A stretch of 59,056 nucleotides of DNA, counting the filler, from Sphacelaria rigidula (taxonomy: Eukaryota): assembly GCA_964200075.2 (NCBI GenBank). It is 10 parts of 10 records of this genome, joined end to end, with 100 filler letters (N's around TTAATTAATTAA, not from the genome) between each part and the next. Parts side by side here need not be neighbours in the genome. Positions count along the whole stretch, not along the records: positions 11,833 to 17,648 come from CAXNAA020024240.1; positions 17,749 to 23,564 come from CAXNAA020024241.1; 8 more parts are not named here. The stretch is one strand, 5' to 3'. The notes beneath the pieces are model-generated. The model did no database searches and was not told where the DNA came from. It was given only the letters and a program-made list of their open reading frames with translations. How positions within the stretch are numbered: the first letter of the stretch is position 1; every line of letters begins with the position of its first letter. This document shows positions 2,623-39,898 of the stretch, piece after piece. The position numbers and the translations under genes are program-made.

Positions 2623-2988
2623 GACACATTCTACGATAGCCCCCCTCAAAAACAGGGCTGGCTTGGGGAGGCAAAATCTACACGTAAATCGGAATGGAAA
2701 AAGCCGAGCACGACGAGCAGTTGGGAATTCCCACGCTTGGGTTCGTTTTCGCCACTGTTGCCTATATGAAGCACTTCATGCAGCCTGGACCCAAACATCA
2801 GGCGCTGTATAAACATATTTTTTGTGAAAATTTGGGGCTGGTTTCGGGGGGGGGGGGGGGGAAGGGCTATTGGAGGAAGGTTTTTGTTTGGTTTTTTACC
2901 CAGGGCGGGGGCACCACCCGCGGGTGGCTGCCTAGNNNNNNNNNNACAGCCACAAAGGTGGGGGTTTTTTTTTGTTTTTTGGGGGGGT

Positions 2989-3023
<35 letters not shown>

Positions 3024-3043
3024 AGGGCTATCGGAGTAAGTGT
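2623..3043. mobile_element. MITE with terminal inverted repeat (TIR) GACACWTTCTACGATAGCCC followed by a C-run
   Basis: Left GACACATTCTACGATAGCCC at 2623; right GGGCTATCGGAGTAAGTGT ending 3043. Same end at 35288-35396, 23704-23726 and 53385-53411. Length is inflated by a gap artefact. Confidence 0.7.
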
Positions 3044-4314: not shown

Positions 4315-5709
4315 TTCAGTTTTGCGTAGAGATTATATTGGGGGGGGACGGGACGGGACGAAACGGGGGGGGGGGTGGGCGGGGGGGGGGGGGTGCAGCG
4401 TGACGTGACAGGCGGAAGGAAATGATGGCGGCCACATGAGTGTTATATAATTGATACATTGAGGACGACACGTTCCGTATCGGGCCTCGAAAGACAAATG
4501 GAGACATGTGAATATTTGCTGTTGAAGAATATTGCATGCGTCACAGGCACGGGACCACGAGACACACGGAATGTTGTCTCTGGAGGTGGTTCTCACGACC
4601 AGAGGGATGCTGCTCAGCTACAGCATCGGGGTCGCCGATGTTGACAATTTACTTGTGACCTTCCACACCTCCGACAGAGTGGAACAAATTCTGCGTGTTT
4701 TTTTTACATTTATTTCAGAGTACGCCTCGTTCTTCGCGGATGACGACGTTCGGCCAGTCGATCTGAACTCAATGCAGTATCTGACAACCTTCGAAAAATC
4801 GTGTTTTTAGAGCTCAAAATGCGATATCTGACAGCCTTTTTCGAAAAGTGTTCCAAACTTCATGCAAGATCTGACAACGCTCGAAATGAAACAGATACTC
4901 GACAACTATTGGGAAGCTGTGTCTGTCCACATCTCGTTGTTTTCGGCACCCGGGAATACAAGTGGGCTGCCGTGTGTCCACATCACCATGAAAAGAGCTT
5001 GCCCCATACAACGTATTCAAGGAGTAATCTGAGGATACACACTGCACATACGCATCTACATTCATTCCACATGTCCCACGTACACACATACACACGCGGA
5101 CACCTGAACATCTGCCTTCCGCTTGAGAATTTTACGCCCGAAGCAACTTGCTTATACCAAAGCTGAGGATGCGCACAACCACTATTCATGGTACTAGTAC
5201 TATTACTAGGACTATGATACTTCAGCAACGTTTCGGCTTTTTTTTACGATGGCTCGCCTGATGGCTCGCCGTACAGGATCCGAAAATGTCTCCACCGAGT
5301 AGTTTACCTGGCAGAGAGCTCGATCAACTCGCTCATCTGATGAAAAACGGTCAACTTTCAAAAACGGCATTTCATGCATGTCCCGAACGTTTATTGCGCA
5401 TTCACATGCACAGGTATCTGGATATTTGCCCATATCTGCCCGCCGCATCTCAACATGTATGCGCACGTAGGCTGCCACGGCGGGGCTTCGTTAATTCTTG
5501 GAGTAGTGAAACACACACGAATGTTTCTACAGCACCGACAGACTTCAAAACGACTGAGGCATGTCAGACCAACTATTTGGTGAAGGTGTACCGGTTTACT
5601 CGTGTGATGAGCTCATCTGTATCCCAAAGAAAAACAAGGGAACAGCAGCACCTGTGAAAAAAATGAAAAGAAAACAGTTTTGCCCGTTCAGTTCCTTTCC
5701 CCCCCCCCG

Positions 5710-5816
5710 TGGTTTTAAGCCTGGTCCGGCGAGAACCCGGCGTGCTCCGTCCCGGCTTTGTAGGGGCGGACCCCCGATGGGGTTGGCGTCGGTTGGCGGT
5801 GGCGCTGTGAAACACG
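5710..5816 (+). repeat. SINE-like repeat, variant with alternative 3' segment
   Basis: Core GCCTGGTCCGGCGAGAACCCGGCGTGCTCCGTCCCGGCTTTGTAGGG, then GGGGTTGGCGTCGGTTGGC..GCTGTGAAACA; related copies at 37697-37797 (-) and 46968-47005 (+). Confidence 0.65.
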
Positions 5817-7872: not shown

Positions 7873-10800
7873 ATGATACTACGGGTGATCCTCCCCCTCC
7901 ACCATAATGCGGCCGCCGAAATTCTGCAGGGGCGGCAGAGACCCGCACGCACCGTAATTGGTGATGAACCGTCAACCCGTGATACGGCACCTTCACTGGC
8001 TTGGAATCGCGCAAACAGTGGCCTGTTCAGCATCTTATTTTTCACCACCGAAAAATCAGCGAACAATACCGTGAGACGTTTCATGGGGAAAACCCAGCAG
8101 GACGGGGTTGGTAATGGCCAAGCAGCGTGAGCAGCGCTGCAAGAAAAATATGTAGGCAACACAAAAGAGGCATGCAGGGAATTCCATGATAAACTCCACA
8201 ATACGACGATGCAGTCAGGGCATGATCCGGAAGATTTTTGTTTGTCATGAATGACTACCGTGATCGCCTGGAGGAAATGGGGCAGTCCGTACCTGACGAA
8301 CGATTTGAGGACATTATGCTTCGAGGCTTACCTGCCGAGTACGACAGGGTCCGCATTGCCAGCTGCAAGAGGCGCGATTTTCATTTCTCGGACCTCAGAT
8401 ACATGGTCAGCACCATGTATGCTGACTGCCTTTCACGACCGGACGCCACCAACTCGGTCGCAGGCCGCGGGGTTGCTATGCAGGCTAGTGGGCGGAATGA
8501 TGGCAGGAAAAGAAATCAAGTAACATGCTACCACTGCGGAAAGCAAGGTCACGTTAGGAGAAATTGCCCCGCCCGAAGTGCGACCCGAGCACTGACAGGG
8601 GGAGACGGTCAGGACGGGGAAAACAATGGGAATGTAGGCAAGCGGTGCTCTTTTCACAACTCAACAACTCACAGCGAAGAAGAGTGCCGTTCCTTACAAC
8701 AGCGCAACCAGCAGACAGCCAATTTCGCACAGTGGTCGGGGTATCCACCAGCCGCCGGTACAAGGGAGCACCCTCCCGCCATCTCCTCTAATGTCCTAGA
8801 AGCGCCCAAAGCGAACCATCCCCAAGCGGACAACCTTTGGCCTTTCGCTCGAACAAACAAACCCGTTGCTTCTTTTAACAGCAGCGGTCTCTTCGGCGCC
8901 TTCGAAGGGGCCGACGGAGAGGAGGCCGGGGGTCCGGGGTTCTGGCGCAGAGCTTGCAACCTACTGTGGGGAATCAGGGGGGCACTGCCCCCACTATTGC
9001 GCGCCCCAGCCATAATGGCCGTAGTCCACTACGTCTGGTTGATGTTCGGGAACTCATTATACCCCCGGGCCACGTCGAACCTCGACGACACCGCTGAAAC
9101 ATTTGGCGGAATCATCGGTGCTGATGATGGGACGGCTCTCGCGGCAGAACCCGCTCTTGACAAGTGGGCTGAGGGTAGCAATAGCCATATCAGTGTCATG
9201 GTAGACAGTGGTGCGTCAGGACATTACTTCGACGATACCCTCATCCCGGGGCTACGGTATAAACTCCACAACTACCAGAAACTGACGACCCCGCGTACGA
9301 TCACCACCGCAGGGGGGCACAAACTGGTAGGGGTTGGTAAAGGACTGCTCCGCGGACACATCCAAGACGGCGAAGGGGTCAAACGCCTGGTTCAGATTTC
9401 GTATTTGGTCGTGCCTGGCTTTGGGCGGAAGTTGTTCTCCGTCAAACAAGCGACACAAAATGGCGTTGTATCTATTTTTGAAATGAACAGCCCAAGACTC
9501 GAGACAAACAACTTCACCGTTCCGCTCCAGGAACTGGAGAGCGACCTGTATTTCTTCTCTCTGGAACTAAGCAGCGGCAACGACGCATCTGGACTGGCCA
9601 TACAAGCTGCAGGCGCCGCCACGCTGTGGCATCGGAGGATGGAACACTTGAACAGCAATAGTTTGAATCTTCTCAAAAACATCGGAAGCAACGAGGTGGA
9701 TTTCGGTGGAGCCGTTCCGGACTGTGATTTTTGTGCTATTGGGAAACGTCATCAACTGGCCCACCCGAAGACAGCCAACGACGAAGTGCAACGCGCTTTT
9801 CAACTAGTCATAACCGATTTGATGGGACCGATCATGCCGGAGGCGCTGGGAGGCTTCAAGTACGTCTGCAAGATCTCCGATGAGTATACCAGATGGACAG
9901 AGATTTACCTCCAAAAAGCCAAGGACGACAGTCTTCATGCATTACAGTCCTACGTACAGTCAAATGGTCATTCCTGGCGGTGTTCGGGTCGAACGACTAA
10001 AGGTAGACAACGGCGGTGAGTTCATTGGCAACGAGTTCAAGTCGTATTGCCGACAGACAGGCATATTGCTAGAGCTTGCAAGCACCAATACACCACAACA
10101 AATCGGCCTGGCAGAACGCGTAGGAAGGACGCTTGCAGCCATGGTCCGGTGCATGCTTGCTGACTGTGGTTTGCCGATTTTTCTCTGGGGGAAATTGATG
10201 TTCACAGCGGCCTACCTTGGAAACAGATCACCGCATTCGGCGCTTGACATGCAGTTGCCTAGTAAGATGCTGAAGGGGACAGAACCGGATCTTAAACACC
10301 TTGTCGGAGCCAGGGTTTCCGTACATATCGAGCGGCATACTTCGAAACATGCTCTCAAAGCAATTGAAGGACGACTAGTCGGGTACAGTAATGACAGTAA
10401 GAGCTATCAAGTCTACAACCCGGCCACGCGACTTATCATTGAGAGCAGGAACGTCGTCTTCACCGAGACTCCGACACACCTGTCCAGTGGGGGAGAAAAC
10501 CGAAAGAATCCCAAACACGTTCAATGAGGCCATGAGTCTCCCCGAAAAGGAACAATGGAAGGCGGCATCAGATAAGGAGATGAATAGCCTGAGAGGAAAT
10601 AACGCGTATACTCTAGTGCCGTTAAGTTCCGTCCCAACTGGATACAAGTTAATCGGGTCCCGATGGGTGTACAAGAACAAAGCGGAGTTCTCGCACAAGG
10701 CCCGCGTCGTCGTGTAGGGTTGGGGACAAAGAGGTCCCTGGCGTCGACTGTGGCAGCACTTTCGCACTGGTCTGCAGGATCAAAAGCATCCGCATGGTAT

Positions 10801-11270
10801 TAGCTGTAGCGGCGGAGTATGACTTGGAGTGTTGGCAATTGACTATAACACCGCCTTTCTGAGCGCTGAACTCAAGGAAGGAGTTTACGTGAAAATGGCG
10901 CCAGGATACGAGGAGTTTGACGCCAATGGAACTCCGATGGTAATGCGGCTCCACAAAAGTCTCTATGGCCTCCGTCAAAGTCCAAATTCCTGGTGGGGAA
11001 CGGTCGACACACACCTGGCGGAGATTGGATACAAGAGCCTTAAGTCGGACCCTTGCGTGTACATATACCAAGAGAGCGGCGACGTCTACATTTCGACTTT
11101 ATACGTCGATGACATCCCACTGCTTGGGAAAGATGTCAAAGTGCTGGGAAGGATCAAGCATAAGCTGATGGGACGTTCCTCGATGACGGACATAGGAGAT
11201 GTATCGTTAGTGCTGGGAATGGAGGTTGTTCGTGATCGCATTAGGAAGACAGTCACCATCAGCCAGAAAA
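7873..11270 (+). pseudogene. Copia gag-pol polyprotein with frameshifts and stops
   Basis: Zn knuckle CYHCGKQGHVRRNC; protease VDSGAS; LWHRRMEH..CDFC HHCC motif; integrase DLMGP, DNGGEF and LAER; RT KARVV, KSLYGLRQSP and YVDD. Stops at 8128 and 10715; frameshifts near 8237, 9960, 10500, 10730 and 10838. Confidence 0.95.
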
Positions 11271-11538
11271 TATCTTCTGTCTACACTCCGAAGGAGCCTG
11301 TCTGCTTGCTTGGCTTAACCGCCATTGCGCCAACTCTAGCAACCACGTCGAAGGGGTTCCGAGTGAATCCTCCAACACATACTACTTGTACACAAGCTCC
11401 CATTTCTGTACCCTTTGTCTCCCTGACGCAGTACCAGTGTGCACAACATTTTGCTCATGATTACTCACAAACACGGGCACTACAGTAGTGGATAGTCTAA
11501 CTATTCATTTCATGGCATCTTGTGTTTTTTTCGTAATT

Positions 11539-16200: not shown

Positions 16201-16591
16201 CGAGCAGCCCCGAGAAACGTTTTCGCTAAAAAAGTGCAACCCCTACCGTAACATTGGTTCCCTATGAATCATACGCACGTTGTTTTCACCCGCTAGTCAT
16301 ACGACATGAAGAGAGCATACATATTTTTTGAACGGAATAAATCCGGCGCACATGATCTCAGCCCGCGATTTGTACGAGATGAATCAAGCGTACGTCTTGC
16401 CCACGTCAGATTCATACGACGAGAATCGAGTGTTTAGCATATTCTTCTCAGCCGCGACTTGTACGGGAACAACCAAACCGATACTTGGTGATGTTTCTGT
16501 CTTTCGTCAGAGTGTACTCTTTGATATTATGTTTCTATGCGATACTTCCATTTTGGGCTATTTTAGACGAAAATCAGAGCGGAAACGGAGA

Positions 16592-16800
16592 TATCACTTC
16601 AGGTACTCTTCCTCGTCTATTTTTCGTCTGAACGTTCCTTTTCCCATAATTTTCACCGTGTCTCTTATTTTTGTCTTGTACCCACCACATTCACCTATGA
16701 GCATTATCGCCTCTTTGTTTCCTCCCATGTCCTTCCATGCTTTCTCGACTACGCTGTCCCGCCTTATTCTCCTGTGGGATGATGAAACATTCCAATCGTT
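16592..16800 (-). mobile_element. LINE ORF2 fragment
   Basis: VVEKAWKDMGGNKEAIM..YKTKIRD..RRKIDEEEYLK, homologous to 18760-18930 and 47540-47700. Confidence 0.85.
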
Positions 16801-16819: not shown

Positions 16820-17155
16820 CAGGTCGAGTAGAGTGTGTACTTTTGAGTACTCGAGAAAAATACTCGAATATTTACTGTACTCAAAGCTTGATTAGGTCGA
16901 GTACGGCCTCAAATACTACACTCAAATTTTGAGTAGGTCGAGTACGGCCTGGAACACTCTACTCAAATATTGAGTAAGCACTTCCAGTAATACTTGAGTA
17001 TAGAGTAGCGCTGGAGTATGACCTCAATACTCAATCTTTAAGTAGGTCGAGTACGGCCTCACATATTCTACTCAAATTTTCGAGTAGATTGAGTACGACC
17101 TCCAACACTCTACTCAAATAGTGAGTAAGCACTCTCAGTAATACTTGAGTGTAAG
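16820..17155. repeat. Array of GAGTA/TACTC motifs with about 39-bp subunits and an about 149-bp higher-order period
   Basis: TAGGTCGAGTACGGCCT near 16893, 16934 and 17043; ACTCTACTCAAATA.TGAGTAAGCACT..CAGTAATACTTGAGT occurs twice. Confidence 0.8.
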
Positions 17156-17921
17156 GTATTACCTGGGTATGGTGAGTATCCGTGACTGTCGGCGACTTCG
17201 TGACGTCACTTCGCTGACTATGTTGAATACATGGGCGAACGATGGCCATCAATTAGATGAGTGGCGTTACGTTACAGGCTACGAGGAGTATGAGCGAATG
17301 ATGGCCACAAAAAAATAAAGAAAGTCTGCCGATGAATGAATATAGCGAACCTACCCGCCCCAGCGCCCCACCTTACCAGCCCCCACCCACGGCAGTACAT
17401 ACTCGATACCTCGCAACACTTTCGATGTCACTTCCAGTACAGAGCGCTACTCGTCATCATTGAGTAATCGAGTTGACGGGTAGTCGAGTAGGTATCAACA
17501 GTGGATCCTGGAAAATGGGGTCCATCCCAAAACTGAGATGGAAGTGGCATTTCTCTTTGGCAGGGATGACGCGAAACACTTGCGACCGAGCGAAGCCATC
17601 TTCCCGCCCAAATGTCCGCAGCAGTTAAGCAGCTGTGGCTAGGTGCACNNNNNNNNNNNNNNNNNNNNNNNNNNNNNNNNNNNNNNNNNNNNTTAATTAA
17701 TTAANNNNNNNNNNNNNNNNNNNNNNNNNNNNNNNNNNNNNNNNNNNNTCCAAACAAAAAAAAAAAAAAAAGAACAATAATATAAAAAAAAAAACAGAAG
17801 GGGGGGTGGGGGGGGGCTGCCATGCGAGGTGGAGGCAGCTGGACAACGCCATACGGAGGGAGAAATACAAGAAGCATCAGGGCTCGCCTTCCTTCCATGA
17901 GCCATCCCACGACAGGGGGGG

Positions 17922-18220
17922 TGTACTCATGATTATGCATGCCAGAGCCATAAAACCATAGGACCATAAACCTCGCATCCCTACAAAGCCGGGACGGAGC
18001 ACGCCGGGTTTTCGCCGGACCAGGCTCGCACTCAAACCACCAAGCGCGAAGCGCCGTGGTGTGTTCGGCGAGTCGCATCAAGGGTGAGCTGCATCCTGCT
18101 AAGATTGTTCGGCCTATCTTGCATTTGAATGACAGCCTACGATGAGTTGCTTTATTGTTTGGTGTCGCTACTAGCCAGAGACAGTCACGGCTTATACACT
18201 ACCTCATGGGTGCGTCACCG
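17922..18220 (-). mobile_element. SINE-like element of about 300 bp with a 13-bp TSD
   Basis: Flanked by ACGACAGGGGGGG at 17909-17921 and 18221-18233; same 5' and 3' ends as the copy at 37239-37540. Confidence 0.8.
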
Positions 18221-18236
18221 ACGACAGGGGGGGGGG

Positions 18237-19751
18237 TAGGGCATACTCATTTGTTGCTTGCCTTAGTCGTTTGGCCATTGACCACGCATCCCTTTCGAGA
18301 TGGAGCATCGTTCCTACTACTAATATAGACACCTTTAACATTCCGGCGCTCATTACGTTTATTCCATACGTCACATAAAACCTTTTAGATACCGTACCCC
18401 CATCCCGTTTCACCGTCTCTGGCCGTCATTTATCTCCTAGTATGGCCATCGTTTTCTCGCCAGTGTCAAACGATTTTATCTCACCTTCGTCAACGTCCCA
18501 CATTTCCCCCTCTAGCACATCCCGTTCCTCCTTGTCTAGTTCACATTCTACCACTATATGACTGCTGCTCTCTATTGCTTCACGACAGAGGCAGTTCTGT
18601 CCATCTACTTCCTGCTCCTTTCGACTACTGGTATATCTCTTTCTTCTTTCTGGCAGGTCTAGGTCCCCCACCCGAAATCGCTGTTTAATACTTTTCGCCG
18701 CGTCCATCGGACCATGCAGATATGCTTTCATTCCGATCCCTTCTCTCAACCACCCGTATATCTCCAGGTGTTCTTCCTTGTCTGCTTCGCTCATTTTCCC
18801 CTTATTTCTATCGTATCTCTTATTTTCGCCGTGTACCTCGCGTCTTCATCTATGGACAGTATTTCGTCTTGGTTCCTTCCCATCTCCTTCCACATTTTCT
18901 CGACTTTTCTATCCCACCTTATAGCACATCCTTTCGTACTTTTCTTCCGTACAGCCCTGTCAACTACAGCTGGAAATCTCTTCCTCTGCATGTTCTTCAC
19001 GCTATATTGCCATCGCAATTTCCTTATATCTCTGTTTGTTTCAAGTGAGTACCTTCCCGGCTCTGCTCTCAAAACTGCATCACTCATCGTTTTCGAGCAT
19101 CCACGTATTTCCTTACCTGCTGTGATTTGTACTGTTTCCAACCCTTCCACCAACGTCACGTTCCCCTCCCGTACCTCTCCTGCATATTCCAGCGTTGGTA
19201 CAATCACGGTCATCAGGATACATCTCTTAATCCTAGTGTCTTGGCGCGGGTCTCTGAGGATCACGTCCATTCTGCCTATCTGTGTCTTACCCTTTTCTAT
19301 TACTTTGTTCATGTGTGCATCCCAAGAACAGTTTTTTGATACCTCTACGCCAAGGTANNNNNNNNNNCAAGGTATGTATGCTGGTCTACAATTGGCAGTT
19401 CTTCTTTTCCCCACTTCCATTTGAACGCTACCGGATTTTCTTATCTTCGTTACGGACGAGTGCCGCCCATTTGTTGACGTTCGCTGTCACTCTCCATTTC
19501 CTTGTGCGTATTCTAGCGCCTTGTCTATCTGTGTCTGTAATCCTTCCGGTGCCTCTGAAATCCCCACAAAATCATCCGCGAACATCAATCCTGATACCGT
19601 ATCTTCACCAACCTTGACCCCTTGCTTTGCTGCTTCTATTGCTATCATCAAATTATTGATAAATACCTCGAACAAAGTGGATGATAACGTACATCCTTGC
19701 GCAACTTCTTGTAAGATATCGAAAAAGCTCGACATTTCCCCGTCTAGAATC
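18237..19751 (-). mobile_element. Non-LTR retrotransposon (LINE), 3' half of ORF2, decayed; includes the natural 3' end
   Basis: RT motifs VAQGCTLS, GLMFADDFVG and YLGV; C-terminal CLC..HIVVEC knuckle; ends GCVVNGQTTKASNK-stop directly before a C-run. Confidence 0.95.
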
Positions 19752-20428
19752 TGTGACGAAATCACGCCGTCACGTTGAGTAAATAGTGATGATGTGAATG
19801 ATGACTTGAGATTTATAGTGATGATACGGATGATGACATGGACACAGGGGTGATACTCTGATGTGGTTTATGGAGCGTGTGTGCCTGCGTGGCACTCCAG
19901 GATAATAAAGAACAGAGGATTCTATAAAATGGGGTTCATCAATGAAATGAGGTTCGAGCCCAAAACAGTACCTTCTCCACACTTTCAGCGATGGTGCCCG
20001 ATGGTTTTTTGTCGGCCTAATGCCCCTCGATCGCATAGATACTCTTTCAGCGCATTTTACCGACTCTGTGAGCTTACAGCGCTTACCGAAACTGCTATTT
20101 CCCCTGATATCACCCCCCCTAAAAAATAAGTAGAAATGACGATTTCGGACAGCACTGTAAGCTCACAGAGTCGATAAAATGCGCTGAAGAAGTATCTACG
20201 CGATCGAGGGGCATGAGGCCGACAAGGAAGTCATTGGGCACCATCGCTGAAAGCGTGGAAAAAGTACTGTTTTGAGCTCGAATCTCATTTCATTGATGAA
20301 CCTCATTTTATAGAATCATCTGTTAAAAGGTGTTGTGAAGGCTAACAACTGAAACCTGAGGCCAGTGAAACTGGGGAGTCCCTCACCGACATTTGACGCT
20401 GCAGGACTAGCAACCTCCGGGCGTCACA
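19752..20428 (+). repeat. Gypsy 5' LTR containing a MITE insertion
   Basis: Perfect 7-bp inverted termini TGTGACG...CGTCACA; starts exactly where the LINE RT is cut; gag-pol follows. Confidence 0.75.
19911..20324. mobile_element. Complete 414-bp foldback MITE
   Basis: Inverted arms of about 190 bp, AACAGAGGATTCTATAAAATG...CATTTTATAGAATCATCTGTT; TSD not clear. Confidence 0.9.
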
Positions 20429-23411
20429 ATATCGATATTAGTGCTAGTCATGCTAGTAGTGCTATCGGTAGTAACTGCTGGAAATTCTTCAGTAGTAGAG
20501 GGGAGTCCAGACAGCTTCGGACATATTGCTTCATGGACGCGCGAGGAGGGTTCAAGCTGAGGTAGCTGCAAAGGCGGCTGGCCCGTGATTGATCCAGACT
20601 AGAGACGTACTGGAGCTGCGTGCAGCGGGAGTTTATAGGATCCCACGGCTGTGTGGTGCGGCGACGAAGGCAGGTGTGAGCTGTGGAGTTCGAGAAGGTT
20701 CACAAGCCTTCGATCAGGTCCGCTCGGAAATGTCGACTATAGAGGTACCGGCCGAAGAGCCAGCGGAGACGACCGTAACCCAAGTTGTTCTGAGAGAAGA
20801 GTTGCGGCCTCCCAGTTATGCGAATTTGAATTCTGAGTGTGCTTCTCGTTCGTTTTATACGAAATGCGTGGAATACAAGGAACGGGTGGGGCATGCGAAT
20901 GCGGGGGGGTGCGGTAAGGCATCAGGTGGTATCCATGGCGCAACTCGTGCCTACCCCCCTTCAACGAGTTTTTGCGAGATAATTCCAAGGGAAGAACACA
21001 ATAACGCCGGTGCAATTTGCTGCAGCGATCAAGACGCATGCAGGGCATGCGATGGGCGCTGAGGCAGAGCTAACCCAGGCGTCCGCGGCCATGGCGAAGG
21101 CTGTCGCCATGAACCACAAGGGGAAGACCATGCGTGAGAGGGTGGAGCCAATCATGGGAAAGTTGGAGACATATTTCTCGGAAAATCTCATCGTCAAGAT
21201 GGTTTATCGTTCTTCCGATGGGAAATTCCGTCCAGGGCTCACTGAGGTGATCACAAAAGCGATGGTGGGGGGTCTTACACCGGCGGAATTCAAACAGGCC
21301 GTGTTTGTGACATCACAGCACGAAACCAATTGGAAGTCAGACCCGTCCTTAGTTATGGATACCGTGGTGGCAGAGACTCAGGCAGGACGGGAGATTGAAG
21401 TATTCTGGAAATCATCCACTTCGTCGCCGCAGTCTTCGAGCTCGCGTAACCGCGCATCAAAACCCGCCGGCAGTGCCGCCGCCAACATCACTACGCACGT
21501 AAGTGCTCAACGCCTTCCGAGGGGGAGTCTGGGCAGACGAGTGCCGCGCGCCCTCGCAATCACAAAGGAGGGAAACGTAATCAGGGGGGGGGGGTGGCGG
21601 AGGCGGATCCTCCAGCGGTGGAGGTGTGCAATCGAATTCCCAGCAGCAGCAGCAGGGGTCCGATTCTGGGTCCGGCTCAGCCGCAGGGGCTGCCGCTCCG
21701 TAACGGACGGTGCAGATAGGACCAACCACTCAAGTGTCGGGCTCGGTGCCGGCGCCGCCGGCAGCAGAGCAAGGCGAGACGCCTGATGCTGAGCCGGCCG
21801 GATTTCAGCTGAAATTTGGATCCGCTGCTGCGTCGGCCGGAGTACCGCTGCAACTTGCTTCTGCGGGCGGGGCTTCGTACCTGCCGGCGGTGCGGGTTAT
21901 CCCAACGGGGGCGTCTATTTCTGCCCCGCACGCGAAGCCGTGGCGCCAAGTGAGGATCACGACAAATCAGTCGGCGGAGCAGGTGCCGGTCGAGGATCAA
22001 GAAATATATATTCCTGTCGAGTTATATATCCCAAATCAACGGACGCGGGGAGCCATATTGGTCAACGCTGTGTTGGATTCAGCCGCCCATTTCACGAGCG
22101 TGTCGGTGCTGATTGTGGAGATTCTGGAGCGTCAACTCCCTGGTGAGAAAATCCGCATTCCGTTCTCGCTCAGGGCGCGGCAGGCCATCACCGCATCGGG
22201 GCAACGTGTAAATGTCACGGAGCGTAGGGATTCTCCTACAGTTGGCGTTCAGGACTACCTGGGGGCCAGCGAAATTACCCACGATATCGTTTGCGATCAT
22301 TCCAGGGACGGATGGCGTCGCCCGGTTCGAGTGTCGAGACGCCTGCTTTTCTGGCCAGTCGCAGAGTGAGCTTGTCGGTTGATGCTTTCCAGGAGGCGGG
22401 GGGGCAGGTGTCCGAGGAGCGTGATGAGGCGGTGGAACGCTTGGTGGAGCGTGGCCCCGATATGTTTGCGGAGCCGGCAGAAGAAGAGTCCGCGCGAATG
22501 GCTGCGCTGGAGGAAAGCGTGACGGATGCTGTGGCAAATGGCCTCAACGTCTCAAAAGCGGAGCGCTTGTATGACATATTGTATCGCCACGTTGACGCGT
22601 TTCGTCGTGCGCTGATCGGTGATTCCCCTGCGCGCGTAGAACCCATGAGGGTTACTCTGAAGCCAGGGGCGGCCGCGGTGAAGGCAAAACCGAGGAGGTA
22701 TGATCCAGTAAAGTCCAGTTGGCTAGCTTCTGGCATGGGAGCTCTTGTGGCGTTTGGGTTGGTGTTCAGGAATCTACAGGCAGTGTGGTCCAGTCCAGCG
22801 ATGGCGGTCGCGAAGAAGGACTCTTTCCGTCTTGTCAGCGATTACGGAGCCACCAATGATCAAGTGGAGAAGTCGCCGGGTGTCATGCCCAGTCAGGAAT
22901 CCGACATGATAGACCTGTCGAGTGCGCGATGCTTCGGTAAGTCCGACCTCCTACAGGGGAACTCGCAGATAGATGCCGTTGGCCAAAGAGGCGCAAGAGA
23001 TATTCACCATCACAACTATGTTTGGCATGTTTACCCCGCAACGAGTACCGCAAGGCGTGTTGAATGCTACTTCCTATTTTCAAGGTGTCATGGTAGACCT
23101 TTGAGATGGCTTGAAATGCAAAATTTTGGTGGATGATATATTTTCTTCACGGACACGGAAGACGAACCGTGTCTGTTTGCAGCTGCTCACAAGTGTACCT
23201 GTGTTGCTAGTGAACTAGTGTGGTGAGGGAAAGTATATTCACACGGCCGCGTCTCGCATGACCCGGCCCGCTTGCAAGGTTTGTCTGACATGGGGCGTCC
23301 AGAAACAGCAGCAGAACTTATGCAATTCCTGCACGCAATGAACTGGTTGCGTACCTCGTTGCCACGTACGGCCGAAGTAGCGGCGCCCTTGCGCGTTTTC
23401 CTAAAATAATT

Positions 23412-23564: not shown

Positions 23565-24921
23565 NNNNNNNNNNNNNNNNNNNNNNNNNNNNNNNNNNNN
23601 NNNNNNNNTTAATTAATTAANNNNNNNNNNNNNNNNNNNNNNNNNNNNNNNNNNNNNNNNNNNNCTGTTTGTTTTGAGTGAGTACATTGGGGGGGGGGAG
23701 GGGAGGGCGCTATCGTAGAATGTGTCAAATGTACCAAGTACAGTATCGACAATTGCGTCTATTGCAGTAGACAATATATTCCATAGTGTACGCAGTATAC
23801 TTTTTGACAATGTAATATTTTGTCATTATCCAGGGTGCGATCGCTTCGAGAATTTTTGGGGGGGAACTTCAATACGACGTGACTTAACAATGTACGACGT
23901 GTGCCCTAGTGCGCTTTTCGACGATATAATCTTTTCTCCAGGGTGCAATTGCTTATAACATTTTTTCGGGCACTTCGACACGACGTGACTTCACCTACAA
24001 CTTGCGCCCTAAGGCGGGGCGGGAAGAGGAGATTTCGAAGTACTGTTGAATTATACTTGCGACATTCTCAAGAATCCACTCGAAATCATATGTTGGGAAT
24101 TTGAATCACGGGTACCTGTCGGATGATATAAGAAATCGAATCTACTTGAAGAGGGAAGGAATCTAGCAGTTCTCCCCTCGCCGTCAAGGGCTCGCCGATG
24201 AGGACCTGTTTCGGAAAAAGGGTCGAAATCTTATGGTGAAGATTGCCGTGAGCACATGATCTTGTACGACCATTCTCCACATTACCGCAAGCGGTACATC
24301 CGGTCAAGTCCAACATGTTCTCTGTTTCTCGCCTTGAAGCAGCGATGAGATCCCTTCGCATAATACCTCTCAGTTCTCTGACACTTTTTTTTTAATTATA
24401 ATTTCTTCACTAGGGCAACATGTGGCAACTCCCCCCACCCCGGCAGAACTTGGTGACTGCGGGAATGGTCCGGCGAAAACTTGGCGAGATCAATGACCTC
24501 ATGAGCATCGCATGCAATAAATATCATGAGTACATCCCCCGACAGTACTGAGCGTGCCGTGGGCCAATACGTGCTCCAGAGTTGGTCACTACAGACAGTA
24601 ACGCACAGGAATAAAATGAACGAAAAAGAGAATCATCCCGCTTTTCCCTTCATGTCGTTCTTAAAGATCGCGGCGCGTCTTCAAGACATCTGCACTCGGA
24701 CGAACGCTACGAGATGCACACTCGGCCAATGAAGGCGTGTTGGGTACTATTGCAAAGCTGGGGATTGAATCCCATCCCATATCGTGCAATTTGGGTTCCC
24801 ACCGCCAAGTGCCGCGCTCGTGGCGGATGAATCCAAAACGAGAAAGCCCACAACAGCGAACCAAAAAGAAATACAAGATCTTCCGCGATCGTCTGTTTGA
24901 TGAGCCTCGCCGTTTGGGGGG

Positions 24922-24938
24922 CGTACTCATTTGTTGCT
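24922..24938 (-). mobile_element. 17-nt LINE 3' terminus inside a C-run
   Basis: Minus strand reads C11-AGCAACAAATGAGTACG-C6, identical to the LINE end at 39979-39995. Confidence 0.65.
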
Positions 24939-25915: not shown

Positions 25916-28281
25916 GTGAAAATATCTTGCTTCAAATATAAATCTCGCGCAGGACACCGCACTTCTTGTGAAGTGTGGCTGAGAGGTATGCATGGCGTTC
26001 TGACGATGCGACGGACAGCATTTCGAATCCCCCGCTTACATTATCTTCGTCACACTTTTTTTGCCTTCAGAATTGATGAGAAGTATTGTGCTAACGGCGA
26101 CACTGCCGGGTGAAAATTATACATACTTTTATATCGTTTTGGGAGAAGAGTATGTGGCGTCGGTTTTTAGTTTATAACGCGGTGAGATATGTGATCGATA
26201 ACCTTGATGTTTTTTTTCAGATCGTGCTTGCTAGTTATTGTGTCGGTTAACGGGGCACTTGGTATGTGCTATTCGTGCGTGTGTTGCGTGACCATCCCAT
26301 TTATTTCTGCACGCCAGTCTATGCCTTTCGGTGTGTGTGTGTGCGCAATAGCCGGGGTCGCACAAGAGGAAGGTCAACAACACAGCACTTTTTCCCATCT
26401 TGTTTGTAGTCCTCCACCTTCCATCTGTGATGCCCACCCTTCACTTTTATCGCGAGAAGGGTTCACCAGTCCCTCTCGACCGTGGAGTCATTATAGATAT
26501 TGTCGCGGGTCGATAGGCGGACTGCCTCCGGCACGAGAAGGTGAAGAAGCAGTAGCATTAGCAGCAGCAGCAGCAGAAACAACAACAGCATCTGTACCAT
26601 CAGCAGATGTGTACATTTGGGGGTGGGGTTGAGGCAACCATTGCCGATACTGCTGCTGCTGCTCTTCCTCGTGCGAGAGACGGTGCGCGTTTCGACCGTG
26701 CGACAACGCCCACGCACTTCGCGCGTGACTGCCAACCTACTGGGAATCGCTGGTCCGCGTTACCCACCGATGGATCCATGCTTGCTCACTCGGCGAAGTG
26801 CTGAGGCGTAGCTGTGCGCATCTCTCAGAGAGAGCTGCGCAAGTCGAGTGTGTACCCCACGCGTGGCTACTGCTGGTGATGAGAAAGCGAGCTGTGCGCT
26901 CCATGAAGGGCCGAGCAACCAACGCCTTGCAACCATGTGACGCTCCTCTCCGCATTCTCGCGCGCATATTCATCCGATCTCACGGGAATCAATTCTCGAA
27001 GTATTACTTCTCGCGAGAGTGATTTCGGGGGAGATGATAATCCGGCATGAACTCACGCGCAATCGGAAACACACACAAAAAGAAACTCCAAAATCATTGT
27101 CACACTCACGTCGCGTTCTTACTTTTCTGATCTCATCAAAACGGGCTCTTGAAACAACCCGACGCAAGTTGGATTACCTTACAAAAATAGGGACGTTAAA
27201 AGCGTTCTTGGGTTCGCTTGGGTACGCACAGCCCGTATCCACACAGTCTGTACAGTAGCATTGTACTGGCCTTCAAACACAAAGAGGGGCACATTGGCAA
27301 TCGGCGTGGTCACGTTCTGAGAATTTCGAGGTAGACACGTTAGAAAAATTATAAAGATCCAAAATTTTAATAGATGGCACACAATAGTGTATAAACAGCA
27401 TGGGTCAACTCGGGTTTCGGCGGCGCGCGCGGGGGGGGTGAATAGTGGCGAAGGGGACGAGAAAATGGCCGTCCCCGAGGGATGGTTCTCACCGTGAAAT
27501 GGGGGTGATATCCACCGTTTCGGCACAGTAGCGTGCGATCGACAGAATTTTTGGATCATATGAAGTAATTCTTTGGATACATTCAATAAGGAATAAACTG
27601 AAAAATGAAAAACGTTCCTTTACCCGGGGGTTTTATGCATGCATCCTCCGGAAGAACATTGTCACACGGGTGGTGTCCACCGTTTTGGCGTGTGACATGC
27701 GAATGATGATGCACCTAGACACAAGAACGCATCGTCGATATTACGTGAGATTAGCGAAATACTCTTTTCCGATACCCCGTTTTTCCCCATCGGGAAATGA
27801 AATCGCCCTACTTCCTCCCCCAACACGATGAGGGTGCTATCTACAGTCCTGGTCACTTACAGGGTCATTTACAGACGAACGACGATGACCCCGAACACGT
27901 GGGAGGCGTTACTAGAACGTGCTCACCGTAGCCTACTACTTCTCGACCTCTTCCTGCACCCGTTCCCTTTCTCAGGGACATAATCAGTGTACCCCTTCCC
28001 GAACAATTTCAGCGGTAAGAACAGCCGATAATCGAAATTGAGGATGGAGCTTCTCATAGAGGATGAGAACCCGGGGGAGGTGTTGTTGCCACTCCTTCCT
28101 CATTACGCGCAGGGGTTAAAATATGAATGCCGATGGCCCTGAACACGCGAGTACTCACTAGAACGTATACTTCTTACATGCTGATTCGATATCACTCTCC
28201 CCCCTCTCCCCGACAATGGAAATGGCGATACCATAAAATTAAGCGACTCATTGGAGGCTATCATCCAAATGNNNNNNNNNN

Positions 28282-28356
28282 AGCGTGCTCCGTCCCGGCT
28301 TCGTAGGGGTGCGAGTTCAATGGTCTCATGACTATGGCATGCATGATCATGGGTAT
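28282..28356 (+). repeat. 3' part of the SINE-like element
   Basis: GCGTGCTCCGTCCCGGCTTCGTAGGG..ATGACTATGGCATGCATGATCATGGGTATA followed by a C-run. Confidence 0.75.
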
Positions 28357-28379
28357 ACCCCCTTCTCCGCGACGATGAC

Positions 28380-31644: not shown

Positions 31645-34600
31645 AGAAAGGCGGCTGGCCCGTGATTGATCCAGACAGGAGACTTGCTGAAGCTGCGTGC
31701 AGTGGGAGTTTAAAGGCTCCAATAACTGTGTGGTGCGATGACGAAGCAAGGAAGTGTGCAGTTCGCAAAAGTCCGCTGGCCTGCGAAAGATTCGCAGGTA
31801 GCCAGTTGCAGCTATGGCGACCGGCTAGCGTGGTACGTCCAGCGTGACGCCCGTGGTCATGGGGAAATAGTTGCGACCTCCCCAATACGGGGATATGTAC
31901 TCCAACAGTGCATCTCGCACTTTTGAAACCAAGAGCTCTGAGGACAGAAAGCGTGTGAAGCACGCTAACGCAGGGGATGCAGTGCGATACCAGTTGGTGT
32001 CGATGGCTCAAAAAATACCGACGTATGTGCAAAGAGTGCTTGCGCGTGTGGAACATAAAAAAAAAACTACAATCATCACGCCGCCGTTGGTTGCGGCGAT
32101 CAAAAGCATGCTTGGCATGCGGCGGGCACTTGCCACTGCTGTGGCCAGATCGGCCAATACGCGCGCGATTGCCCAACGTCTTCCGGTGGAGAGTGTGGGC
32201 AGTCTCATGCCACGCGCAATCAGCATCGTCAGCACAAAGGTAAATGACGAGATAATCGGGGTGGTGGTGGCGGCGGCGGATCCTCCAGCGGTGGAGGGTC
32301 GCAGCCGAGTCCTCAGCAGCAGCAGCAGCAGCAGCATGGATCTGGTTCTGGGTCCGGCGCCGCCGTAGGCGCTGCTGCTCCGCAACGGGCGGAGCAGGTG
32401 CGACCGACTTCTACATTGTCGAACACTGCATCGGCGCCCATGGTGGCGCCGGTGGTGGCGCCGGTGGCGACACCGGCAGCAGCGCTAGGCGCGACGCCTG
32501 CTGATGCGCTGGTCGGAGTTTCGCTATAACCTTGGTCTGCTGGCTGGGGGTTGTACCCGCCGGCGGTGCCGTTTCAACCTGCCGGGGTGTCTTTGCCTGC
32601 GGAGCTTGCGGAGCTTGCGGAGCTTGCGCAGCCGTGGCGTCAAGTGGGTTCAGCGGCGCATCGGTCGGCGAATGAAGTGCCAGTGGGGTTTGCGGACAAG
32701 TACGTATCTGCGGAGCGGTGTTTTCCAAATCAACGGGAGCGTGGAGCCATTGCGGTTCGGGCTGTGTCGAATTCTGGCGCCCACTTCACGAGTTTGTCGG
32801 TGCAGATTGTAGACATGTTGGAGTGTTCGCTCCCGAGTGTGCCGTTGCGCACTCCGTTTTCGCTCGGGGCGGGGCAGGTCGTCACCGCGTCGGGTGAGCG
32901 TGTTTACGTCACGGAGCGTACTGTCCCACTGCAACTGGCTTTCATGACTGCCTGGGGGCCGGTGCCGTTGCCTCCGATTTCGTTTGCGATCATGCCGGGG
33001 TCGGATGGCGCCATTCCTCTGGGGTTGCCGACGCTTCAGGATCTTGGAATCGGTCCGTATGCGTGGTTGTGGAACTCCATGAAGACGCGGATGTCTCCGT
33101 CTAGTCCGCGCTTGGAGGCGCCCACCTTGTTGGGCAGTCGTCGTGTGAGCTTGTCGGTGGATGCTTTTCAGGAGGCTGGGGGGCAGGTGACCGAGGAGAG
33201 GGATGAGATAGTGCAACGCTTGGTGGAGCGCGGCCCGGAGAAGTTTATGGATCCGGCGGAAGAGTATTCCGCTCGGAACCTCGCGCTGTAGGAGAGCGTG
33301 ACGGATGCTATGGCGAAAGGCCTCAGCGTCTCAAAAGCGGAGCGCCTGCGCGGCATATTGCATCGCCGCGTCAACGCGTTTCGCCGTGCGCTGCGGGGTG
33401 ATCACCCTGCGTGAGTGGAGCCCATGCGTGTTCAGCCAAAACCTGAGGCGTCCGCGGTGAAAACAAAGCCGCGGCGGTACGATCCGGTGAAGTCGAGTTG
33501 GTTGGCGTCGTGCATGGCGGCTCTTTTGGCGCTGGGTTTGGTGTTCCGCAACTTGCAGGCGGTGTGGTCCAGTCCAGATATGGCGGTTATGAAGACGGAT
33601 TCGTTTCGTCTAGTAGGCGGTAGGCGACTACAAGGCTGTGAATGAACAGGTTGAGAAGTCGCCGGGTGTGATGCCCAATCAAGGGTCGGACATGCGTGAT
33701 CTGTTGAGTGCTCGTTTTGTTTGGCAAGTTGGACCTCCTCCAAGGTTTTTGGCAGATGCCATCGGCGGAGGAGGCGCAGGAGATTTTAAAATCACGACTC
33801 CGTTTGGCCTGCTTACCTCTAAGCGAGTGCCGCAAGGTATGATGAATGCCACGGCATGTTTTCAAGGCATCATGACAGAACTTCTCGTCGGCTTAAAATG
33901 CAAGATGTGGGTGGATGATGTGTTTTTGGAGGGGGACACGGGAAACGAACGTTTAGACACGCTTGATGCTATCTTGGCCCGTTTAGAAAGTGTTGGTTTG
34001 TTTGCGGCTGCACACAAGTATACCTTTTTCGCCAGTAAACTCGTGTGGTGTGGGAAAGTGTACTCACACGGACGCGTATCCCATGACCCTGTTTGACATG
34101 CGGCGCCCGGAGACGGCCGCAGAACTCATGCAATTCCTTCAGGCCGTGAAGCGGCTGCGTACCTCGTTGCTGCGTATGGCAGAAATCGTATGTCCCTTTC
34201 GTTTTTTCCTCGAAGAACTCATGGCGGATGCTGCGAGGCGGACGAAGCGTGTGGCAAAAAATTGTGCTATTCCGCCTGAATCGTGGACGGAGGGCAGGCT
34301 ACAGGCGTGGGCGGCAGCGAAGGATCTGGTGGCTCATGCCGTGACACTGTTCCATCCTCGTCCTGATTATCAGGTGTTGATGTTTCCTGATGCATCTGAG
34401 TGCCATTGGGGTGGTTTTGTCACACAGGTTCCTGAAGTTGAAATGCAACAACGCTTGCCGGTCGAGGTTATGACGCATGAACCGCTGGCTTTCCTCACTG
34501 GTAGTTTCAAGAGCTTACAGTTGCGTTGGAGCACAAATGACAAGGAAGCTTTTGCTATCGTGAGCACGTTTCGTTGTTTGGAGCATATTTTGTGGGATGG

Positions 34601-35287
34601 CGTGCACATTTTCACGGATCACCGAACTCTCGTGTTTATTTTCAACCCGGAAGCGCGCGTTACGTCTGTGTCGAAGGCGTTGAAACAACGTTTGGAGGGT
34701 TGGAAAGGTGTTCTTGGCCAGTATCGCTACTTGATTTGCCATTTTTCGGGTGACCGTAACGCGTAGGGTGGCTTGCTTTCGCGTCGGGTGAATACTCCGG
34801 CTTTGCCCGTGCGCGCTGTGGCTGTGTATAGCCCGTGTGAACCTGATGACTGGATGCCGTCCAAATCTGTTGTCCGCCAAGCGCAACGAAAAGACCTTGG
34901 GGCCGAAAATGTAGATCTACAATCTTTCGAGTCGGATGTTGGTACTGCTATCTTGGACAATGAAAGTCTGTTTCGTGTGCATGTGCGTGGGTATGTGCGT
35001 GGCCGAAACGTTTTGTGGATTTCGAGTACTGACAAGCAGTTGCAGGTACGTCTGATGATTTGCGCGCACGTGCGCAACGCCGGGCATCGTGGTGTGGCTG
35101 CGATGCTCGTGCGCTTGCAAGAGCTTTGTGTTTGGCACGGGATAGAAACTCATGTGCGCGAATTTGTCCGCCAGTGTCTTCGTTGTGCTGGCTCGAAGGC
35201 GGGCGATGTTGTTCTCCGCCCGCTCGGCGAAATGGTCCATGGGACCATGCCGAATGACGTCGTTCATTTTGACTTCTTGTACGTGGG
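31645..35287 (+). mobile_element. Ty3/Gypsy gag-pol, decayed (gag, protease, RT, RNase H, start of integrase)
   Basis: Protease-like AVSNSGAHF; RT PQGMMNA and WVDD; RNase H FPDAS, KEAFAIV and FTDHR; integrase AH..GHRG..CLRC and HFDFL; order PR-RT-RH-IN; stops and frameshifts. Confidence 0.95.
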
Positions 35288-35396
35288 GACACTTTCTACG
35301 ATAGCCCCCCCCACAAAAGTGCATGGTTTTGGGAGGCAAAATCTTCACGTAAATCCAAATGGGCAAAGCCGAGCACAGCGAGAAGCTGGGAACTCC
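35288..35396 (+). mobile_element. MITE end inserted in the Gypsy integrase
   Basis: Matches 2623-2731; integrase similarity ends at FDFLYVG. Confidence 0.8.
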
Positions 35397-35752
35397 NNNN
35401 NNNNNNNNNNNNNNNNNNNNNNNNNNNNNNNNNNNNNNNNTTAATTAATTAANNNNNNNNNNNNNNNNNNNNNNNNNNNNNNNNNNNNNNNNNNNNCGAC
35501 TATGGCCACAGACAAATGAGTACGCCCCCCCCCCCCACCGATCACTCCCCACACCGTGACACGCTCGATCTCCCCCTGGGCGCACATCGTTCAAAACCTT
35601 GCCTCACTGCTCATGCAAGCATACCCCCTCCACATGATTCAACATGGATGTTGCCACCACAAATTGCAATCATGTGATCTCCAAGATACTACAACTAGCC
35701 AAAGGGATCTTCGACACCAGTATGTTCAGTGTGTATGACTGTATCAACGGCC

Positions 35753-35786
<34 letters not shown>

Positions 35787-35954
35787 CCCCCGCCCCCGCC
35801 CCCCCGCCCTCGCGTGCCCCCGGCACGCCCCGACCCCGCCTCCGGCNNNNNNNNNNAGCTGAATGTAGCCGACAAATCAAAACCACCCCCCCCCCCCCCC
35901 CCCCCCCCCCGCTTCCCCCCGGCAAGGCCTGCTTCATTCGCACGTCCCGAGCAC

Positions 35955-37238: not shown

Positions 37239-37540
37239 TGTACTCATGATCTTGCGTGCAATGGCCGCATGACTATTGACCTCGCATCCCTACAAAGTCG
37301 GGACAAAGCACACGGGGTTTTCGCCAGATCAAGTTCGCAATCGATCACGAATCGCGAAGCTCCGTTATGTGTCCGGCGAGTCGCATGAAGCGCAAGCTGC
37401 ATCCTGCCAAGATTATTTGGCCCGAAGCGCACTAACTATCTTGAATTTGGACGACAGCTCCCAATGAGTTGCTTCATTTTCTGGTATCGCCACTTCCAGA
37501 GACAGCCACGGCTTACACACTACCTAATGGGTGTCTCGCC
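37239..37540 (-). mobile_element. Second full-length SINE-like copy, intronic
   Basis: Colinear with 17922-18220 with the same 5' start; ends ATGAGTACA plus C-run; no TSD visible. Confidence 0.8.
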
Positions 37541-38065
37541 ATGTAAATATTACGTAGTATGATCATCTCCTTCGCGCAGAATTGTGGTTCTCCCACCCCG
37601 CACGATATGATCTAGCTCGACCACCACCATGGCTACCGCAAAAAAAAGCGCAAAAATAATAGCAACCTAGTAGCCTAGCTTACACAGTGAGTAGCATGTT
37701 TTACAGTGCCAGTGCCAACCGACGCTAATCCCACAGGGGGCGATCCGTCCCTACGAAGACGGGACGGCGCACGCCGGGTTCTCGGCGGACCAGGCTGAGG
37801 AGGAGAGGGAGGGGGGGGGGGGGGGGGGGGGCAAAAAAAACCCCCCGATCAGCTCGGGGGGGAGGGGAAAGCGAACAACCAATAAAAAACAGCAGCTGCA
37901 ACAACAGCAACCATCGACAAAACACCGCCAACACCAACAACAACCAAAAATCACAATCGGCAGCGACAACAGCAGCAGCACGAACACACCCGAACAAACG
38001 AAGAGCCACCTTGAAAACAATATGGTCCCCAGCTCACTGAACAGCTCGATCAACTTGGTACTCAC

Positions 38066-38370: not shown

Positions 38371-38497
38371 GGTACTCATGATCATGCATGCCATGATCAT
38401 AACACCATTGACCTCACATCCCTAAAAAGCCGGGACGGAGCACGCCGGGTTTTCGCCCGACCAGGCTCGCACTCAGTTACCAAGCGCGAAGCGCCGT
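38371..38497 (-). repeat. 5'-truncated SINE-like copy with C-rich sequence on both sides
   Basis: Matches 17922-18058; G-rich flanks on the + strand at 38357-38371 and 38498-38521. Confidence 0.8.
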
Positions 38498-39370: not shown

Positions 39371-39547
39371 CTGAGGGTGAAAACCGAAGACTTGTGGGGG
39401 GGGGGGGGGGGGGGGGGGGGATCGTATGGGAGGAGGGGTTGGGGGAAAGGGGGCAAGATTTACGATTCAAACAGAAAAGCGTGTTTTTNNNNNNNNNNGG
39501 GAAGGGGGGGCATATGAGGGGAGAGAACAAAGGAGGGGGGGGGGGAA

Positions 39548-39579
<32 letters not shown>

Positions 39580-39898
39580 AGGTGGCTGATCGTATCGTAG
39601 TAGAGGTTGTGGGAAAGAGGGCATGATTTACGATTCACACATGAGATCGTTGTTTTTGAGGTGTATAGGAATCGAAACACGACATACCTTGAGCAGGGAA
39701 AGTATCGAGAAAGAAAAATAGCAAAGGCCATCAGGCAAAGGCCACCACAGTAAAGAAACCTCAAAATTCTCGACCGTTACTGATACTTCACTCTGTAGCA
39801 GCGTAAAATGCACTATAGTGACCACGGGTTCGCGAGATCGGACTAATGTGCGGAAATAATAATAAAATCGTAATAAAAGCCGCAGCGCCTGCCTCCTT

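Follow-up and report, generated by a model that had tools for sequence, protein, structure and literature searches.

The stretch analyzed here, 59,056 nucleotides of Sphacelaria rigidula DNA (assembly GCA_964200075.2, ten parts of ten records joined by filler; hereafter the window), is eukaryotic, with a G+C content of about 50%, many retroelements and blocks masked by N. It carries copies of a long interspersed nuclear element (LINE) and of a short non-autonomous (NA) partner, and our analysis confirms that copies of both end in runs of C (C-runs) and are inserted beside such runs. At the level of anatomy it is well supported that the C-run is part of the target and more than a tail. We propose that the LINE and its short partners integrate by target-primed reverse transcription (TPRT) at oligo(dC):oligo(dG) tracts, and we put the probability of this reading at roughly three in four.

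C-runs at 5′ junctions and in target-site duplications

Eighteen elements were compiled from blastn, tblastn or terminal-motif matches, with their 5′ boundaries placed where homology stops, plus or minus a few nucleotides. A junction was counted as carrying a C-run if at least 6 C's on the element strand ended no more than 15 nt upstream of the 5′ boundary. LINE-F, with its 5′ side hidden by N, was left out, as were an old fragment at 16561–16788 and a copy at 56033, both with an undefinable 5′ boundary, which leaves 15 assessable junctions. A C-run was present at 12 of them (9/12 elements with the ATGAGTAY end and 3/3 copies of a further group, family 4), whereas 1.26% of window positions satisfy the same criterion, corresponding to a binomial P of 7e-21 for all 15 junctions and of 1.7e-15 for the 12 ATGAGTAY elements alone. 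The first-pass annotation of this DNA, in which a poly(C)-targeting LINE was proposed, had let its case depend on such an enrichment over background, and the enrichment is there. It had further placed C-runs at LINE 5′ truncations at 47981–48001 and 53385–53395, and plus-strand runs of G13 (47989–48001) and G11 (53385–53395) were indeed found at the truncation points of LINE-B and LINE-C. The LINE copies, together with the C-run behind LINE-A, are as follows (RT, reverse transcriptase; aa, amino acids; P0002, a full-length homologue):

LINE-A, 18237–19772, minus strand: decayed, 5′-truncated LINE with the C-terminal half of the RT, a Cys/His motif and a stop 5 nt before the end.
C10 behind LINE-A, 18227–18236, minus strand: serves both as the LINE 'tail' and as the start of the 5′ target-site duplication (TSD) of NA-1.
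LINE-B, 47327–47988, minus strand: fragment, aa 1038–1256 of P0002 (tblastn); the 5′ truncation abuts C13 (47989–48001).
LINE-C, 53242–53377, minus strand: fragment, aa 1001–1041 (tblastn), with C11 (53385–53395) about 7 nt upstream of the 5′ end.
LINE-D, 39954–39995, plus strand: 42-nt 3′-end remnant, 6–7 nt behind the C12 of NA-5, with C-run+TGT(T)AGG on both flanks.
LINE-E, 24922–24938, minus strand: 17-nt 3′-end remnant between C11 (24939–24949) and C6 (24916–24921).
LINE-F, 35497–35524, plus strand: LINE 3′ end, then C12 (35525–35536); body hidden by N.

LINE-A carries one stop and one frameshift, as seen by translation and in its tblastn match to aa 856–1360 of P0002; its 5′ boundary lies at about 19759–19775, and the piece 19490–19795 matches Pfam RVT_1. 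The 3′ part of LINE-B is hidden or lost, and the C11 run at the 5′ side of LINE-C belongs to another repeat. Tandem repeats (~63 nt; ~42–110 nt) adjoin LINE fragments at 47038–47226 and 16873–17150.

The non-autonomous copies are:

NA-1, 17922–18220, minus strand: full-length 299-bp element ending ...ATCATGAGTACA.
NA-2, 37239–37541, minus strand: second full-length copy; C7 after the 3′ end; 5′ side without C-run or duplication.
NA-3, 38373–38497, minus strand: 5′-truncated; CCCGCCCCCC directly at the 5′ end, CCCCGCAC9 after the 3′ end.
NA-4, 28218–28357, plus strand: 5′-truncated, with an internal deletion.
NA-5, 39894–39935, plus strand: 42-nt remnant, then C12; no 5′-side C-run.
NA-6, 41485–41517, plus strand: 33-nt remnant.
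NA-7, 24449–24534, plus strand: 5′-truncated; C6ACCCC 8–14 nt upstream, T+C5 after the 3′ end; duplication ambiguous.

The three copies of family 4 consist of a ~50-nt central module of the 300-bp element, followed by a different 3′ part:

5709–5816, plus strand: carries the central module of NA-1 only; C10 abuts the 5′ end (blastn).
37640–37796, minus strand: C21 14 nt upstream.
46968–47010, plus strand: C10 15 nt upstream.

Further, five elements are flanked by duplications that start with a C-run and continue into unique sequence:

NA-1: 3′ copy at 17909–17921 (minus strand; C7 + TGTCGT), 5′ copy at 18221–18236; 13/13 identical.
NA-4: 19 nt, starting with a C-run; 16/19 identical.
LINE-D: C-run+TGT(T)AGG around 39936–39953 and 40013–40028; 14/15 identical.
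NA-6: C16+GCGCG upstream, G+C7+TCGCC downstream; 10/11 identical.
NA-3: 9/10 identical.

Two of these had been noticed before. The pair 17909–17921 and 18221–18233, first ascribed to the LINE, is present at full identity and flanks the 299-bp NA-1 instead, and the C-run+TGT(T)AGG duplication expected near 39956–39995 is that of LINE-D. In each of these duplications the 5′ C-run comes before the unique part and was therefore already in the target; neither a tail nor an untemplated addition could have placed it there. The 5′/3′ lengths of the C-runs are 10/7, 6/5, 16/7, 6/9 and 11/6; the 3′ run does not in general exceed the 5′ run, so that the 'tail' may to a large extent be duplicated target.

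These features bear directly on a simpler explanation, in which the C-run is nothing more than a tail that comes with the RNA or that the RT adds, the targets are random and the 5′ C-runs arise by chance or from element crowding. Such an explanation would suit the three 5′ junctions without a C-run, as well as the fact that other elements of the RTE and RTE-X groups carry (CA)n or (CAA)n with no target preference stated in the rows concerned (PMC3747384, Table 3; Ectocarpus RTE rows of PMC12477816). It does not account for C-runs within 15 nt of 12/15 junctions against a background of 1.26%, and no tail explains why, in five elements, the 5′ C-run precedes the unique sequence of the duplication. 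Moreover, only 2 of the 12 junction runs are tails of recognizable older copies, the other 10 being none, and the relative lengths of the 3′ and 5′ runs argue in the same direction. We therefore regard a mere tail as highly improbable and keep to the C-run as part of the target.

3′ ends

The window contains 11 occurrences of the terminal motif ATGAGTAYR, where 1.16 would be expected and 100 shuffles gave 5 at most; a C-run follows 9 of the 11. At least 5 C's lie within 7 nt of the 3′ end in 11 of the 12 readable window elements. An L1-type poly(A) tail, whose absence had been claimed from the outset, is indeed found nowhere: no A's follow the 3′ end in the window elements (0/12), and there is no poly(A) in three LINE copies from elsewhere (0/3). 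The latter, L001–L003, were found by exact 21-nt matching in a metagenome collection, cover 3′ junctions only and end ...ACAAATGAGTACG, then C8, C10 or CCTC7 (3/3).

On the minus strand, LINE-A ends with ATGAGTATG at 18242–18250, and CCCTA stands between this end and its C10 (18227–18236). The other 3′ ends consist of ATGAGTACG followed directly by the run, namely C10 in LINE-D (39987–39995, plus strand), C6 in LINE-E (24922–24930, minus strand) and C12 in LINE-F (35516–35524, plus strand). The reading frame of LINE-A closes with ...KASNK and TGA, the element ending 5 nt past the stop, so that the TGA sits within the terminal motif; this arrangement had been described with ends at 18237, 24922, 35525 and 39995, all of which check. 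A copy of the 3′ module shared with the short partner, at about 55975–56041 on the plus strand, ends ATGAGTATG, then TCCTGTGCGG, and provides the only 3′ end without a C-run.

The short non-autonomous partner

The two full-length non-autonomous copies, NA-1 and NA-2, are 75% identical by blastn. As judged from an alignment of 9 sequences, the last ~70 nt are common to the LINE and the non-autonomous element, and in the LINE they lie inside the coding region. With respect to the usual marks of a short interspersed nuclear element (SINE), the 299-bp partner has a 3′ end in common with a LINE and lacks a head derived from tRNA, 5S or 7SL. No Rfam family reached gathering score in the window and no tRNA was found when a small-RNA head for NA-1 was sought; in the NA-1 region (17880–18330) Rfam gave two matches at chance level (E of 0.6 and 0.93). 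A search of a prokaryote genome collection with the non-autonomous element gave a single match, to a Pseudomonas contig, which we take as chance, and a viral collection gave none. Between LINE and non-autonomous copies the shared 3′ module shows one compensatory pair. A recognition hairpin in this module was considered and set aside, the consensus fold being weak (−5.2 kcal/mol with the one compensatory pair), and it is not used as evidence.

Abundance and tail-to-head stacking

Four public sequencing runs, three under one organism label and one labelled as an alga metagenome, were matched at 80% likeness. Contigs matching the stretch number 93,857–176,206 per run, with the deepest bin at the core of the short element, and the family is therefore extremely abundant in those runs. 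Loose contig ends show the 3′ sequence of the commoner subfamily only, with no flanks.

Within the window, two insertions are nested behind C-runs of older copies, NA-1 lying 6–7 nt behind the C10 of LINE-A and LINE-D behind NA-5. Recurrent tail-to-head joints of the same kind occur in the public runs (18026->18239 in 11–21 contigs per run, 18307->17915 in 25–41 and 18307->18239 in 10–15), with linkers that are short and often C-rich among the best 12 of ~800 linker rows. Both sets of observations, the joints qualitatively, support the view that new insertions sit behind the C-runs of older copies.

Such arrays might also be made in one event, by template switching of the RT between RNAs, with the C-runs between elements representing joined RNA tails. 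The frequency of tail-to-head joints with short linkers would agree with this, as would the remark 'can be present in tandem' in the Ectocarpus table (rows in PMC12477816). However, both nested cases in the window repeat the linker behind the downstream element (TGTCGT in one, TGT(T)AGG in the other), which indicates a separate insertion with its own duplication, and no element 3′ end stands ahead of 10 of the 12 junction C-runs. Only a slim chance is left, in our view, for arrays made by template switching, and we favor successive insertions at C-runs.

Relatives and family assignment

A large protein collection contains full-length homologues of the LINE, P0002 (1360 aa) and P0004 (1328 aa), which are 58–60% identical to the decayed window copy and combine PF03372/PF14529 (Exo_endo_phos, APE endonuclease) with PF00078 (RVT_1) in one protein. 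The coding region, initially called 'ORF2', is accordingly to be seen as a single open reading frame (ORF) for endonuclease (EN) and RT, with no ORF1, as the full-length homologues show; the window copy retains only the C-terminal half of the RT. The ...KASNK C-terminus recurs in four outside homologues. Among relatives with a name, proteins of Ectocarpus sp. match best, with 57–71% identity to P0002, and one of them, P0006, ends ...TASNK. A dinoflagellate origin, for which a spliced-leader motif gave 0 matches, was discarded in view of these Ectocarpus homologues. Of the solved structures, L1 ORF2p and R2 resemble the RT to about the same degree, which does not place it in a clade, and a protein atlas returned generic endonuclease/RT clusters only, without taxa.

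The single APE-EN + RT ORF is one feature of the RTE-X group; a simple 3′ repeat with a very short 3′ untranslated region (UTR) is another, seen here in the C-runs and in the stop 5 nt before the end. C-rich TSDs, as in the RTEX-1/2 elements of Ectocarpus, are likewise present. Keeping in mind that membership in RTE-X is judged from a published table and named homologues, and that RTEX-1/2_Ec32 were compared by description only, which weakens the assignment, the LINE is most likely an APE-type single-ORF element of the brown-algal RTE-X group. In P0002–P0012 the stretch ...GCVVNG... stands just before the stop and is kept even in relatives of 40% identity. Its codons coincide with the shared nucleotide module (18260–18290, minus strand), so that conservation there may act on RNA as well as on protein.

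Proposed mechanism and its weighing

On the element sense strand, the target would read C-run + N(0–13). The bottom (G) strand would be nicked at or within the G-run, and its G-ended 3′-OH would prime cDNA synthesis on an RNA ending ...AUGAGUAC(R), probably plus a few C's, which would probably stem from read-through into the C-run behind the donor copy. The top (C) strand would be cut 0–13 nt downstream of the C-run, and repair would duplicate the C-run with a short unique stretch. As each insertion would turn one C-run into two, later copies would come to stack tail-to-head. The geometry of the junctions is consistent with a nick in the G strand and with priming on a C-ended RNA, and we infer both from it; the same applies to the strand that is nicked first, to the G:C pairing and to whether the endonuclease or annealing is the seat of specificity. 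In a stronger form of the proposal, the RNA would be tail-less, the '(C)n tail' would be duplicated target throughout and the endonuclease would nick oligo(dG):oligo(dC) with genuine specificity, each insertion doubling its target. We consider this form possible, on the doubtful side. Were it true, brown-alga genomes would contain a self-amplifying source of C/G homopolymers and tail-to-head arrays, together with a homopolymer-specific LINE endonuclease of an uncharacterized type.

The main rival to an endonuclease-made preference accepts the bias as real and attributes it to microhomology selection of G-ended primers, or to fragile G/C homopolymers with pre-existing nicks or breaks. A duplication that starts with a C-run agrees equally well with this view and with a specific nickase, and the C-only duplication of LINE-E and the lack of any in LINE-A and NA-2 are as expected of break-associated events. 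Stringent LINEs with 3′ repeats, moreover, begin reverse transcription inside those repeats, which we count in favor of annealing. The stagger of 0–13 nt and the intact APE in full-length relatives suggest ordinary endonuclease-dependent TPRT, which does not locate the specificity, and no observation made here speaks against selection by annealing or breaks. We judge this rival to be unlikely, and continue to prefer TPRT at oligo(dC):oligo(dG) tracts.

Several points weigh against the preferred reading. Three of the 15 elements, LINE-A, NA-2 and NA-5, have neither a 5′ C-run nor a duplication, and they include the copy originally noted (LINE-A) and one of just two full-length non-autonomous copies (NA-2). 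The duplication of LINE-E consists of C's only and that of NA-7 is ambiguous, while the 3′ end at 56033–56041 is alone among 12 in having no C-run. Taken singly, a duplication scores at about the 91st–95th percentile against a control with C-runs on both flanks, and the unique part of each is short (3–13 nt). The 5′ test was devised after inspection of the data, with boundaries taken from homology ends. Joints found at 80% likeness are prone to false joins from repeats, and the joint counts given above lend qualitative support only. Finally, no empty site was seen among the 15 joints listed of >1,400 in the public-run contigs, and the C-run before insertion is therefore deduced from the layout of the duplications. 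For poly(C) targeting by the LINE as first put forward, this means that the C-run-led duplications of five elements speak for it and that LINE-A itself, without 5′ C-run or duplication, does not; cumulatively, we find the interpretation of the first-pass annotation partly supported.

If TPRT at C-runs is correct, the choice of homopolymer in this process is not tied to A/T, and G:C tracts are open to an APE-type LINE, which by using them multiplies its own targets. The family would then offer a natural system for asking whether the target choice of a LINE is made by its endonuclease or by primer–template pairing. Some of the long C/G homopolymers in brown-alga-like genomes, and the very high copy number of these elements there, may also be explained in this way.

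Homopolymers and other repeats in the window

C/G runs of at least 6 number 77 in the window against ~24 expected from composition, and A/T runs of at least 6 number 90 against ~19, or about five times the expectation; C/G stands out only at runs of at least 10 (25 vs 7). Recognizable copies adjoin 20 of the 77 C/G runs. The family thus accounts for part, and not all, of the homopolymers, and the suggestion that it explains the many G/C runs of this window holds for those 20 but not for the rest, A/T runs being enriched too. Homopolymers of C/G of 25–34 nt without a recognizable LINE or non-autonomous end lie at 2989–3022, 35754–35785, 35886–35910, 39396–39420 and 39551–39579.

A 17-nt motif, GACACWTTCTACGATAG, or a near variant of it, has a C-run of 6 to 34 immediately behind it at these sites:

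2623–2645, plus strand
35288–35312, plus strand
2846–2880, minus strand
2989–3040, minus strand
23689–23725, minus strand
53385–53412, minus strand

At 35288 this motif marks the point where a Gypsy integrase frame is broken, and it therefore resembles the end of a further repeat that carries a variable C-run, rather than a LINE tail. For the same reason ...CTACGATAG + C-run was rejected as a third LINE tail family, since the motif starts another repeat that breaks the frame at this position. LINE-C lies ~7 nt behind one of the C-runs associated with GACACWTTCTACGATAG. For the Ectocarpus repeat 'unknown7-N1', an entry in the supplement of PMC12477816 reads 'C-rich termini / insertion sites'. 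Repeats of the telomere-like CCCTAA/CCCTAAA type are found at ~53400–53445 (minus strand), just upstream of the C11 at 53385–53395.

Other retroelements in the window are a Ty1/Copia-type element (8226–11488, plus strand) in which zinc knuckle, Pol beta-barrel and pre-integrase domains were recognized, and two related Gypsy-like stretches (20983–23136 and 32530–35444, both plus strand) that are ~75% alike.

Comparison with known systems

Kojima and Fujiwara reportedly described, in 2004, microsatellite-specific LINEs of the R1 clade with (TAA)n, (AC)n, (TC)n and (ACAY)n as targets. The family resembles these elements in that a simple repeat is both the target and the flank of the element, but differs from them, as insect LINEs of another clade with di- to tetranucleotide targets, in that its target is a homopolymer. 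The target of L1 is TT/AAAA. As in L1, the duplication begins with a homopolymer that matches the 3′ end of the element, as would follow from the pairing of a homopolymer-ended primer with the 3′ end of the RNA. Unlike in L1, the homopolymer is C instead of A, a poly(A) signal and tail are both absent, and the 3′ run is in general no longer than the 5′ run; in addition, the partners in the window need shared 3′ sequence (the stringent type) and not just a tail. In vertebrate L1 elements, poly-C tracts lie within the 3′ UTR, ahead of the poly(A). The open-access literature yielded no experimental study of a C-run as LINE target.

With RTE and RTE-X elements in general the LINE shares a single ORF with APE ahead of RT, a very short 3′ UTR and a simple repeat in place of poly(A). 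The 3′ repeats of green-alga RTEX elements are (CA)n, (CAA)n and (CCAT)n (PMC3747384, Table 3), and the Ectocarpus rows give (CAA)n for RTE families and (CA)n for CRE (PMC12477816, supplement). Unlike these, the repeat in the window is a mononucleotide, and it is present on the 5′ side too, as part of the duplication. Recent RTEX-1 is reported for the kelp Saccharina in a passage of the kelp genome paper.

The closest match is in Ectocarpus. In the relevant rows of the supplementary annotation table of PMC12477816 (Genome Biol 2025), RTEX-1_Ec32 is described as 'single EN-RT ORF; (C)n 3'' and RTEX-2_Ec32 by '(C)n termini/TSD', while the TSD is entered as 'C-rich' for RTEX-1/2_Ec32 and for the non-autonomous RTEX-N1/N2_Ec32, the latter having 60–100 bp of 3′ end in common and carrying the remark 'can be present in tandem'. 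The C-runs are thus on record in the table, and the main-text passages on these elements leave them undiscussed. The belief that such a specificity had never been described has to be given up in the light of these rows, by which the kind is largely documented already. Because the Ectocarpus table has (C)n ends and C-rich TSDs for RTE-X, the family studied here is a further member of this known kind, and, the trait being on record, our contribution consists of a further genome and an analysis at the level of junctions, with no new principle. Two differences from Ectocarpus are apparent: the genome is another one, with the closest proteins just 58–60% identical to the decayed window copy, and the non-autonomous element of the window measures ~300 bp, unlike RTEX-N1/N2 (188 and ~605 bp). 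In the remaining respects, that is, a single EN-RT ORF, C ends, C-rich TSDs and partners whose head is of unknown origin, the family in the window is like RTEX-1/2 and N1/N2 as these rows describe them.

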